From assembly GCA_005191425.1 (NCBI GenBank), contig SUPR01000009.1, positions 1 through 32,000 of the forward strand: a DNA stretch of 32,000 nucleotides, in the 5' to 3' direction. The notes beneath the pieces are model-generated. The model did no database searches, was not told the origin of the DNA, and saw nothing but the letters and a program-made list of their open reading frames with translations. This stretch comes from Candidatus Helarchaeota ASGARD archaeon Hel_GB_B. Lineage in GTDB: Archaea; Asgardarchaeota; Lokiarchaeia; Helarchaeales; HEL-GB-B. A program made the translations under genes and the position numbers. Below are positions 23,821-24,939 of this stretch, in pieces (the stretch's first letter is position 1; every line of letters starts with the position of its first letter).

Positions 23821-24939
23821 TTATCTATAATAAGTAAGGTTAAATTCTTTAATCTTTTTATATCGATTTAAGATCTCATTGGCTTTATCCGTTAGTGGTT
23901 TGACCATTAAAAAATATTTAGATTGATCGTCTGTAAATTTTAAATCTTTAAATACTTTTAATTCGTGATGAAATGTTGTGATCTGGCATGTAAAAATTTC
24001 AGGATATTTTTTACGAATATCACGTAAAATTTCGGCTATAAAACCCAATTTCTGTTCGTGAGTTAGCGATTCATCAAAACCGAGATTTCCTAATAGACCT
24101 ACAGGGGCGCTTCCTCTTTCAAAAGTAGTCAATTCAATTCTACAGGTCATTGTAGCCATTATTTTATTGTTGAGTTCAAGGATATACCAAATCAAGCCCC
24201 ATGGATCACCAAATGCGTCATTCAATTTTTTGGTGTTTTCTAAATCGATCTGAAAGGTTTTATTGTCATAAATTCTTGATAGTGGGACACGTGATGAATA
24301 TGAATTAATAATTTCAACACATCTTGAGATATCATCAGGGATTTTCCCGGTTCTTAAATTACCATCGAGAGGGTCATGAGGTAACTTGCTATAAAGAGAT
24401 TCAGCAAGTTTTGCTAGGACGGAATTAAGTCCACGATATTCTTTTAAAATTTGGACGCCATATTTCTCCATTATTTTTATATAATGTTCATGCTTTGAAA
24501 TATTAACAAAATCAAACTTTTTTAATATATTATCGCCGTATTTTCCTTTTTGTACCATCCTGAATACAAGGTCATAACCTAATTTTTTTGCTTCTTCAAT
24601 TAGATTAGAGACCATATTGGTCGCGATACCATTTCTTCGATATTGAGAATCGACTGCTGTGAGTCCTATATTAGTACCTATAATTTCAATTTCATTGTCA
24701 AGTTTTATAATTTCCTTATGCCCGACTGCAAGTCCAATTAATTTATCATCATCCCAAGCGGAGAAAATTAGTTCGTTAGATTTTGGGAGTACCCAAGCAT
24801 TAAAATATATTTCAGCATATTTAGAGTTCCAATGTAATGCACCATCTTCTTTATAGCTCGTGAAATAGGTATTATATAATAAATTTCCGATCTTATCATA
24901 AGGCAAAGGCTCGGTTAGTTTTTTAATTTCAATTGTCAT
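23821..24939 (-). CDS. Tandem-GNAT acyltransferase, N-myristoyltransferase-like architecture
   Basis: GNAT motif A [15 protein letters not shown] in the N-half; a second GNAT-like half starts [20 protein letters not shown]. GNAT call is firm; the NMT resemblance is by eye. Confidence 0.78.
   Translation of the reverse strand: [372 protein letters not shown]

Follow-up and report, generated by a model that had tools for sequence, protein, structure and literature searches.

N-myristoyltransferase (NMT; EC 2.3.1.97; Pfam PF01233 and PF02799), known from yeast Nmt1p, Candida Nmt and human NMT1/2, has been regarded as an enzyme that originated in eukaryotes, and N-myristoylation has served as a marker of eukaryogenesis (Meinnel et al. 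2020, as cited in PMC12219266). The enzyme is a double GNAT protein with the active lobe first, in which the amides of a bulge in the strand E-I-N-F-L-C-V/I form the oxyanion hole and the general base is the C-terminal carboxylate (PMC4964394; PMC12219266). A study of HisAT/NAT16 (Nat Commun 2025; PMC12219266) defined 'NMT-type' proteins as double GNATs in which the chain terminates at the active site, as it does in NMT1, and presented AlphaFold models of such proteins from archaea and bacteria, one of them from Thorarchaeota. These models entered a structural dendrogram of selected proteins, without activity data. Among the papers searched, none joins N-myristoyltransferase with Asgard archaea.

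Here, we analysed a gene of a Helarchaeota genome located in a DNA stretch of 32,000 nucleotides (the window). Its product, P0001, is likewise predicted to have an active lobe followed by a second GNAT lobe and, judged by its models, fits the definition of the NMT-type set. The published description of that set mentions neither the Helarchaeota family nor its link to NMT at the sequence level nor the conserved terminal Arg. We find that P0001 is a real but distant relative of NMT and not a canonical NMT.

Gene and domain architecture

According to the list of open reading frames and the translation, the gene is intact and starts with ATG (Table 1). A preceding sequence-only reading had described it as a tandem GNAT protein that tracks NMT from end to end, with an acyl-CoA-binding motif in the N-terminal half and a second GNAT-like half. 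The motif is present as R101-x-x-G104-x-A106 within a Pfam Acetyltransf_1 domain, the second half is seen in the fold of the predicted models only, and the overall correspondence to NMT is borne out by sequence profiles and predicted fold, as detailed below.

Pfam recognises just the N-terminal GNAT domain (Acetyltransf_1, residues 35-125, E 3e-9), with matches to Acetyltransf_1, _10, _7 and _9 within residues 29-149, and the AlphaFold models give this lobe the order b1-a1-a2-b2-b3-b4-a3-b5-a4-b6. The pyrophosphate motif conforms to the GNAT definition Q/R-x-x-G-x-G/A (PMC12219266); 76-80% of the 25 family members share G104 and I105, and G92 in strand b4 is invariant in the eight closest sequences. 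The most highly conserved part of the family is the linker, whose end KLP-x5-G193 corresponds to NMT LYRLP..T.G-LRP (HMMER stretch 176-228 against human NMT2). In the second lobe, 88-96% of the members retain G193, D203, N212 and Y214, and the profile stretch 193-261 corresponds to the start of NMT_C. This lobe is devoid of a conserved CoA motif, and G298, located at the position of the CoA-motif Gly, varies among members. Purifying selection is apparent over the whole length of P0001, including the tail, across members down to 21% identity.

Table 1 Features of the P0001 gene, with positions in the window
Feature	Position	Strand	Assignment and basis
Whole CDS	23821..24939	minus	372 aa + stop; P0001, predicted NMT-type double-GNAT acyltransferase
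N-terminal GNAT domain, aa 1-156	24472..24939	minus	predicted acyl-CoA-binding and catalytic lobe
Strand b4, aa 90-96, N-I-G-L-T-A-V	24652..24672	minus	aligned by HMMER with NMT E-I-N-F-L-C-V/I
Pyrophosphate-binding motif R101-R-N-G104-I-A106	24622..24639	minus	read from sequence; GNAT Q/R-x-x-G-x-G/A
Two linker helices, aa 157-192	24364..24471	minus	model helices 158-169 and 173-183; end in KLP-x5-G193
C-terminal pseudo-GNAT domain, aa 193-350	23890..24363	minus	predicted acceptor-binding lobe, based on fold
C-terminal helix, return strand and tail, aa 351-372, K-x-K-E-F-x-L-x-Y-Y-R	23824..23889	minus	structural alignment with NMT
Terminal Y370-Y371-R372	23824..23832	minus	family alignment of tails

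Relationship to N-myristoyltransferases

The link to NMT becomes visible only with a family profile, since searches with P0001 as a single sequence (Pfam, NCBIfam, phmmer against PDB) return a generic N-terminal GNAT and no NMT. We thus searched 177,635 PDB sequences with a profile of the 25-sequence family alignment (A2). NMTs ranked above every other GNAT (Candida NMT E 2.2e-15, yeast 1e-13, human NMT2 1e-7), each being matched in two stretches, namely the N-domain and the linker with the start of the C-domain. The best non-NMT protein reached 1.9e-7, and the best Eis-like tandem GNAT 1.3e-4 (range of the Eis type 1e-4 to 2e-3). A profile of eight sequences already detects Candida NMT with E 1e-4. 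At the level of Pfam models, the signal fades: four of the 25 members weakly match NMT (best 2e-4) and six NMT_C (best 1.6e-3). P0001 itself matches neither model even at E <= 10 and hence stays below the curated cut-offs of both; a search of the whole Helarchaeota genome with PF01233 found nothing.

The sequence-only reading had also aligned five sequence blocks with NMT. HMMER recovers three of them: LLYNTY..HWNSKY with its 22-letter NMT counterpart, paired residue for residue, and the 16-letter block matched to KLVGF.. plus 11 further letters both fall in the stretch 8-119 against yeast, Candida and human NMT, while the pairing of a 14-letter block ending in ..INSY with LYRLP.., eight further letters and.TY falls in the second stretch (176/193-261). 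The C-terminal block is supported structurally, model residue 371 being paired with the final residue in all NMT chains listed, and KFTDD ~ KFGIGDG lies outside all sequence alignments and only within the structural superposition. Judged by the profile E-value of 2.2e-15, the likeness of the aligned blocks to NMT exceeds chance.

The predicted fold points in the same direction. Two AlphaFold (AF2) models of P0001 were used (pLDDT 87.6 and 95.0), with the caveat that both come from a method trained on many NMT structures. In the PDB, the top 50 Foldseek matches are all NMTs (E 2e-19, TM 0.70-0.73). VIA-align against 48,161 representatives places two NMTs first (Z 28.6 and 28.3; 338 and 321 residues; rmsd 3.3 and 3.1), followed by MAB_4324 (24.0), Eis2 (21.7), HisAT (15) and FemX (14.3), and the model with pLDDT 95 gives an identical ranking. 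Individual NMT chains reach Z 30.4, so that NMT overall superposes on the model range 1..371 with Z 28.6-30.4 over 321-338 residues at rmsd 3.0-3.3 A (about 335 collinear residues at about 3.1 A). The double GNAT fold is collinear with NMT across both lobes, with a CoA motif in lobe 1 only, and the linker and the start of the second lobe, G-(L/I)-R..D..L.(N).Y, are recognisable in sequence as well. In a library of viral structures, NMTs of giant viruses rank first.

Other tandem GNATs follow at some distance. The second-best fold is the tandem-repeat GNAT MAB_4324c of Mycobacterium abscessus (PDB 7q3a; Z 24.0-24.7, 296 residues, rmsd 2.8-3.0), whose alignment ends at model residue 349 and thus includes no counterpart of the C-terminal helix, return strand and tail; at the sequence level, no match was found for it. 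Eis and Eis-like proteins (PDB 3sxn, 9mva, 2ozg, 2hv2, 3n7z) share an Acetyltransf_9-type N-terminal GNAT followed by a second GNAT, and their alignment likewise reaches the last residue of the chain, but they superpose less well (Z 18-22, rmsd 4-6 A) and carry an SCP2-like third domain (PF13530). P0001 lacks this domain, all of its 372 residues being taken up by two lobes and tail. The ESM Atlas cluster of Eis with SCP2 reaches a TM of 0.64. FemX (Z 14.3-14.8) and FemA (14.1-14.3), with rmsd >6 A, fall far below NMT, and P0001 has no Fem-type Pfam match. In the ranking against FemABX, Eis and other tandem GNATs that had been suggested as a check, NMT is thus best; with profile and fold both ranking it first and the tail of the model superposing on that of NMT, none of the refuting outcomes named in the sequence-only reading was obtained.

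The course of the C-terminus deserves particular attention. The model range 1..371 corresponds to human NMT1 154..496, Candida 81..451, yeast 77..455, Aspergillus 121..492 and Leishmania 54..421, and each aligned range, in chains of seven species including Cryptosporidium, ends on the last residue of NMT; against deltaC2 human NMT1, the alignment ends at 369 : 494. C-terminal strand and tail therefore superpose up to the very end of NMT, and the models support the view that the tail of P0001 takes the same course as the catalytic C-terminus of NMT. P0001 ends one residue further, in an invariant Tyr-x-Arg, and its carboxylate may thus sit differently; the tail is also the part of the model with the lowest pLDDT (66-79). 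Among the 25 family members, 14 end in Y-x-R exactly four residues past a conserved Leu, some of them being merely 25-27% identical. In this clade, the tail length is fixed and Arg invariably occupies the final position.

P0001 nevertheless departs from canonical NMTs in several respects. Identity is 9-14% and P0001 remains below the Pfam thresholds. The NMT signature E-I-N-F-L-C-x-H-K-x-L-R-x-K-R (strand b4 and helix a3) is not present in the corresponding segment of 16 residues; in the HMMER alignment, the block EINFLC(V/I)HK..R.KR.AP is replaced by another segment of 17 letters, with the classical GNAT R-x-x-G-x-A where NMT has R-x-K-R-x-A-P. Gly92 takes the place of the Asn preceding the oxyanion-hole residues. 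Aligned by hand, the Thr of NMT strand b5, which we take to be Thr282 in human NMT1, corresponds to Q130, a variable position. Model residue 1 aligns with residue 154 of human NMT1, 77 of the yeast and 81 of the Candida enzyme, and just two residues precede strand b1, so that P0001 has nothing that corresponds to the first approximately 40 residues of the catalytic core (human 115-153). In NMT1, this N-terminal core segment (human ~115-153) helps to form the myristoyl-CoA site. The ribosome-binding N-terminus of NMT has no equivalent either.

Distribution among Asgard archaea

All named close relatives of P0001 are Helarchaeota, with orthologues at 65-68% identity assigned to Candidatus Helarchaeota. 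The family was found strongly in two of 301 Asgard species genomes; within the sample searched, it is limited to one order rather than being a trait of Asgard archaea in general. Within Helarchaeota it is expanded and comprises six or more subclades, and the genome analysed here has two copies, whereas eukaryotes have a single conserved NMT. We define a Helarchaeota Y-x-R double-GNAT clade by full-length homology and the ending K-x-K-E-F-x-L-x-Y-x-R; P0001 belongs to it and its tree support is 99/99. The C-terminal ends of more divergent paralogues differ. A word-indexed profile search added two full-length relatives (P0042 and P0043) and one marginal match, while a search for related loci with alignment A1 returned generic bacterial GNAT pieces only. 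Datasets with matching DNA were metagenomes of hydrothermal vents and marine sediments, with no RNA dataset among those listed.

Other Asgard lineages harbour a second, uncharacterised double-GNAT family (A4), which is PF01233-positive and exceeds the Pfam NMT cut-off in 33 of the 301 genomes. Its members resemble P0001 in length (361-374 aa), in having an aromatic residue and then Arg as their last two residues and in having NMT as first PDB match; A4 in fact matches only NMTs in the PDB (best 1.4e-12). The two family alignments match each other in hhalign with a probability of 99.0% (E 5e-18, 317 columns). They differ in that A4 always ends in W-R (...F-D-W-R) instead of Y-x-R and keeps an NMT-like W-L-x-V-H on strand b4, which the Helarchaeota family does not, and A4 is just 14-20% identical to P0001. 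In a tree confined to the Asgard families, both form separate clades (support 100/100 each). The Helarchaeota family is the sister of the PF01233-positive '...WR' family and the more diverged branch of the two. Searches of five bacterial genomes with PF01233, and of 301 genomes from the phylum of a Bacillota MAG with the A4 profile at E <= 1e-8, found nothing; bacterial look-alikes are indicated by the fold search of the ESM Atlas only.

Proposed function and alternative explanations

Since P0001 is homologous to NMT, folds into two lobes in the models, carries the CoA motif and has a tail of constant length that runs as in NMT, we consider it likely that the gene encodes a genuine, strongly diverged NMT homologue, i.e. 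a monomer-sized double-GNAT N-acyltransferase dependent on acyl-CoA. The N-terminal GNAT would bind acyl-CoA via R101-x-x-G104-x-A106, and the thioester would be polarised near G92-T94, where strand b4 bulges; by analogy with NMT, this bulge may provide the oxyanion hole. The degenerate second GNAT would serve as acceptor groove. Return of the last strand to the first lobe would bring Y370-Y371-R372 to the active site, where the free carboxylate would most probably take a proton from the amine to be acylated, as it does in NMT.

Which amine, then, would such an enzyme acylate? An amino group of a peptide or protein appears somewhat more likely to us than a small amine. P0001 could use the NMT-type scaffold for N-acetyl or N-acyl transfer to small molecules (amino acids, polyamines, amino sugars or antibiotic-like amines), as Eis, HisAT/NAT16, GLYAT and glucosamine N-acetyltransferases use theirs, a possibility we regard with some doubt. 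Most characterised prokaryotic tandem GNATs use small molecules, and several of them (Eis2, a GNAT of the clavulanate pathway and glucosamine N-acetyltransferases) reach Z 20-22 against the model. Furthermore, the N-domain of 24 of the 25 members matches the Eis-type Pfam model Acetyltransf_9, a fold search of the ESM Atlas places clusters of bacterial GNATs of about 350 aa closest (TM 0.81-0.82, compared to 0.76 for eukaryotic NMT), the expansion into paralogues suits diversified small substrates and the invariant terminal Arg might interact with a carboxylate of the substrate. Yet NMT scores 4-8 Z units higher and its profile E-values are lower by many orders of magnitude, HisAT reaches a Z of just 15, the SCP2 domain is missing and no conserved biosynthetic or resistance cluster surrounds the genes, the neighbours of which vary between subfamilies. 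A methyltransferase, a small GNAT and a RagA-like GTPase are common to the loci of P0001 and its 68% identical orthologue and absent around more distant members; unannotated genes of ~375-385 aa beside P0001 and P0007 were considered as homologues and rejected as not homologous. It is improbable in our view that P0001 is a protein N-alpha- or N-epsilon-acetyltransferase transferring short acyl chains, or a catalytically dead scaffold: in sequence searches the N-domain also resembles Naa30, Naa50 and RimI, archaea acetylate protein N-termini and several catalytic side chains of NMT are not conserved, but CoA motif and b4 glycine are, the tail is under the same selection as the rest of the protein, and the genome, with six further GNAT matches, already has single-domain NATs.

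At the other end, P0001 might be a true transferase of myristoyl or other long acyl chains to the N-terminal Gly of Helarchaeota proteins after removal of Met, in which case protein fatty-acylation would predate eukaryotes; we rate this as quite improbable. NMT, tail included, is the closest characterised relative by profile and fold, and both genome and window are rich in acyl-CoA metabolism. The two acyl-CoA ligases of the window that the sequence-only reading had pointed out do exist (AMP-binding; 3648-5333 and 8961-10649), 13-20 kb away and hence not as neighbours; a 3-hydroxyacyl-CoA dehydrogenase lies near one family member, and the distant member P0017 is directly followed by an acyl-CoA ligase and adjoined by two small GTPases. 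A few proteins of the genome start with a myristoylation-like MG..(S)K (MGSISSKS, MGSKMSKL, MGIQMSKS). The same reading had seen no intact protein with Gly2 in the window, to which the ORF 31247-31996 may be an exception, starting with M-G-S-N if its TTG start is real. The proteome scan it had proposed does not reveal a substrate set: Gly2 occurs in 117 of 2950 ORFs read from the first ATG (4%), and 27 of these fit the loose PROSITE myristoylation pattern where about 22 are expected by chance according to an estimate made by hand, i.e. there is no enrichment across the genome, the scan being weak evidence because every start codon was assumed to be the first ATG. A motif search gave 34 small GTPases; neither these nor the GTPases beside family members begin with MG, and no myristoylation sites were found on Asgard Arf proteins (PMC11914678). 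The missing NMT signature block, Asn and Thr side chains and N-terminal core segment, together with divergent paralogues differing in their C-termini, also speak against an activity like that of the single eukaryotic NMT.

Implications for the origin of protein lipidation

NMT-type folds of archaea and bacteria are already in print since 2025 (PMC12219266), which limits the significance of the fold as such. The most far-reaching scenario is that the Helarchaeota enzyme and the '...WR' Asgard family are working fatty-acyl transferases acting on protein N-termini (or lysine), that Asgard archaea had evolved NMT-type protein lipidation and membrane targeting by the time of eukaryogenesis or earlier, before eukaryotes existed, and that eukaryotic NMT descends from this archaeal stock; we regard it as a long shot. 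The proteins involved are small, soluble products of single genes (360-380 aa), amenable to in vitro assays of donor and acceptor, and the invariant aromatic-Arg C-terminus with its fixed tail length offers a mutable handle on the mechanism. An Asgard homologue of NMT that is detectable by sequence and has the same two lobes and returning C-terminus opens the origin of protein lipidation to experiment.

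Results and discussion

Single-sequence searches of P0001, the protein encoded by the studied gene, reveal an N-terminal GNAT only. Residues 35-125 match Pfam Acetyltransf_1 (E 3e-9), NCBIfam returns weak and generic GNAT matches, phmmer against the PDB finds exclusively single-domain GNATs, and matches to the N-myristoyltransferase (NMT) families PF01233 (NMT) and PF02799 (NMT_C) are absent in Pfam even at E ≤ 10. A search of the source genome assembly (3.5 Mb, AT-rich with 28% GC, 94% complete) with PF01233 yielded zero matches. The nearest recorded proteins share at most 68% identity and are named ‘Candidatus Helarchaeota archaeon’, and the DNA of this stretch occurs in hydrothermal-vent and marine-sediment metagenomes.

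When 1.84 billion representatives were searched exhaustively with phmmer, only 26 relatives emerged at E ≤ 1e-3, those with a name being Helarchaeota in every case, and we aligned 25 full-length members (alignment A2). The source genome encodes a second full-length NMT-type double GNAT, P0045, and another genome of the same order carries three copies. In a maximum-likelihood tree of 42 sequences, the Helarchaeota group splits into at least six well-supported subclades. Every member of the P0001 clade (support 99/99) ends in Y-x-R, while P0045 falls into a different subclade, one with ..G-Y-N-I ends, and has the hydrophobic end ..I-I-G-Y-N-I, compared to Y-Y-R in P0001.

Homology to NMT

AlphaFold models of P0001 built from 8 sequences (pLDDT 87.6) and from 42 sequences (pLDDT 95.0, pTM 0.92) both show two GNAT lobes and two joining helices, followed by a last helix and a short strand returning to lobe 1. 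The sequence-only reading had proposed an NMT-like protein, with Eis, FemABX or another tandem GNAT as the alternative. In Foldseek searches of the PDB, the top 50 matches were NMTs without exception (E 2e-19, TM 0.70-0.73). An independent alignment against PDB representatives likewise placed yeast NMT (Z 28.6, 338 residues aligned, rmsd 3.3) and Cryptosporidium NMT (Z 28.3) ahead of MAB_4324 (Z 24.0), Eis2 (Z 21.7), a clavulanate-pathway GNAT (Z 21.3), MshD (Z 17), HisAT (Z 15) and FemX/FemA (Z 14), with the same order and values for the pLDDT 95.0 model. As NMTs rank best in both comparisons, neither Eis nor FemABX is the closest fold; giant-virus NMTs also rank first in a viral structure library.

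Profiles point in the same direction. The eight closest sequences suffice to detect Candida NMT (E 1e-4) and yeast NMT (E 1e-3), and the A2 profile reaches E 2.2e-15 and about 1e-13 for these two, 1e-7 for human NMT2 and 1e-5 for human NMT1; the best non-NMT is PH1933 (E 1.9e-7) and the best Eis-like tandem GNAT has E 1.3e-4. Fungal NMTs and NMT2 are each aligned in two stretches, positions 8-119 and 176/193-261. The sequence-only reading had compared five blocks with human NMT1, and these alignments recover three of them: helices a1-a2, the K-L-(I/V)-G strand with strand b4 and helix a3, and the linker ...L-P...G-x-(L/I)-R...D-(I/V)...L-(I/L)-N-x-Y. The KF..DD block lies outside every sequence alignment. 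The homology of P0001 to NMT is real and the original observation is confirmed.

NMT uses the carboxylate at its C-terminal end as general base (PMC4964394; PMC12219266). Residues 1 to 371 of the P0001 model align with all NMT chains listed, ending at the last residue of each (human 496, Candida 451, yeast 455, Aspergillus 492, Leishmania 421, Cryptosporidium 466), and the alignment with a human deltaC2 truncation stops at 369 : 494. The P0001 tail thus tracks that of NMT position by position and is longer by a single residue, R372. Superposition on NMT would place the carboxylate of P0001 in the active site; model confidence is lowest at the final two residues (66 and 79). A Y-x-R end exactly four residues past a conserved Leu is found in 14 of the 25 A2 members, including some only 25-27% identical to P0001; the tail is under constraint in this family.

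P0001 also departs from NMT. In place of the E-I-N-F-L-C-x-H-K..R.K-R block of NMT, P0001 has [15 protein letters not shown], which retains the ordinary GNAT pyrophosphate motif R-x-x-G-x-A, and Gly92 occupies the position of the NMT Asn adjoining the oxyanion-hole residues. As P0001 begins two residues ahead of strand b1, nothing in it corresponds to the ~40 residues that open the NMT core (human 115-153) or to the longer N-terminal extension. The HisAT/NAT16 study searched AlphaFold DB and ‘surprisingly’ found that both archaea and bacteria have double-GNAT structures of the NMT type, in which the C-terminus lies at the active site; a Thorarchaeota protein is among those tabulated, and the authors caution that activity is unproven (PMC12219266). 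The label ‘myristoyltransferase’ goes beyond our results; P0001 is an NMT homologue.

Genomic neighbourhood and candidate substrates

Features of the window and of related loci
Feature	Position	Strand	Remarks
AMP-binding acyl-CoA ligase	3648-5333		
Ceramidase-like protein	5370-6770	-	466 aa; N-terminal part of PF04734, E 8e-12
AMP-binding acyl-CoA ligase	8961-10649		
RadA	13765-14721	+	PF08423, E 4e-99
Ras-family small GTPase	14902-15414	-	PF00071, E 2e-45; sole upstream in-frame start TTG; without Gly2
374-aa gene	21249-22373		
237-aa ORF	22978-23691	+	no Pfam match
P0001	23821-24939	-	372 aa; single intact ORF, ATG start
SAM methyltransferase	25087-25800	-	upstream of P0001
RimJ-like GNAT	26142-26687	-	Acetyltransf_3; upstream of P0001
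RagA/Gtr1-like GTPase	26677-27603	-	308 aa; PF04670, E 3.5e-25; upstream of P0001
2-hydroxyacyl-CoA dehydratase D-component, two genes	within 28512-30976	+	PF06050
Next ORF	31247-31996	+	249 aa; upstream start TTG only; would read M-G-S-N
P0045	C103:22973-24097 = L002:1486-2625	-	379 aa
P0017 locus	L016:8001-12213		27% identity; ends ..P-Y-Q-R
MGSISSKS start	C107:31152-32063	+	putative start codon
MGSKMSKL start	C138:21281-22723	+	putative start codon
MGIQMSKS start	C142:20678-21001	-	putative start codon; 107 aa

The upstream order methyltransferase, GNAT, GTPase is retained at the locus of the 68% orthologue (L015); at more distant family members it is not, and the neighbours there are unrelated. 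The GTPase and RimJ-like GNAT genes overlap by 11 bases, are kept as a pair at L015 and possibly form a GTPase-acetyltransferase operon in an Asgard archaeon. Between the P0001 and 374-aa genes lies a 237-aa ORF that is missing from the otherwise syntenic L015 and is therefore a local insertion or spurious. The distant member P0017 is followed by a same-strand AMP-binding acyl-CoA ligase, and is flanked by two Ras/Arf-type small GTPases, neither with Gly2.

The proposed scan for myristoylation-type N-termini gave a count close to chance: Gly2 is present in 4% of first-ATG ORFs of the whole source genome, and 27 of these fit a loose pattern (~22 expected, estimated by hand). None of the 34 motif-defined small GTPases of the genome starts with MG; in Asgard Arfs, no myristoylation sites were found (PMC11914678). 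Three textbook-looking myristoylation starts from this genome are tabulated, and the MGIQMSKS protein has a Gly-Gly-Gly end like ubiquitin-like SAMP/MoaD proteins. The Ras-family GTPase of the window adjoins RadA.

The ceramidase-like gene, of the neutral/alkaline type and of a family that is unusual for an archaeon, is flanked by the two acyl-CoA ligases and an MmgE/PrpD protein. Following the dehydratase genes, the third gene at L015 encodes a 447-aa HGD-D protein, hence the 249-aa third gene of the window may be shortened.

Distribution across Asgard archaea

Of the 301 Asgard species genomes sampled, 33 have a PF01233 match above the curated cut-off, and these matches cluster in three families (22/28, 10/11 and 5/7). 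There were no matches in the two largest sampled families (0/69 and 0/76), in the window's own order or in control genomes (0/14). Twelve positive ORFs were read out (11 plus P0048; 362-380 aa), and all twelve end in ..W-R, a terminal Trp-Arg without counterpart in eukaryotic NMT. Those at L034-L045 share the same ..(S)-F-Y-F-D-W-R end across three taxonomic families. Alignment A4 combines the twelve ORFs with P0046 and P0047, relatives that score below the cut-off and likewise end in ..W-R. It retains an NMT-like W-L-x-V-H on strand b4 and matches only NMTs in the PDB (best E 1.4e-12), in a single stretch that covers lobe 1 and the linker and extends into the beginning of lobe 2.

In the ESM Atlas, the predicted folds closest to P0001 belong to bacterial GNAT clusters with a length of ~350 aa (TM 0.81-0.82), followed by clusters of eukaryotic NMT (0.76), Bathyarchaeota (one cluster, 0.74) and Eis+SCP2 (0.64); in one Acidobacteriota cluster, 14% of members carry PF01233. 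Sequence searches brought up no such relatives among 301 genomes from the phylum to which a Bacillota MAG (G301) belongs. Our results therefore do not demonstrate that eukaryotic NMT descends directly from the Asgard genes. An aromatic-Arg carboxy-terminus is common to the Helarchaeota and PF01233-positive families, and A2 and A4 match in hhalign with 99.0% probability (E 5e-18, 317 columns). The Helarchaeota family is thus sister to an NMT-like family with a patchy distribution across Asgard archaea, and of the two it has diverged more.
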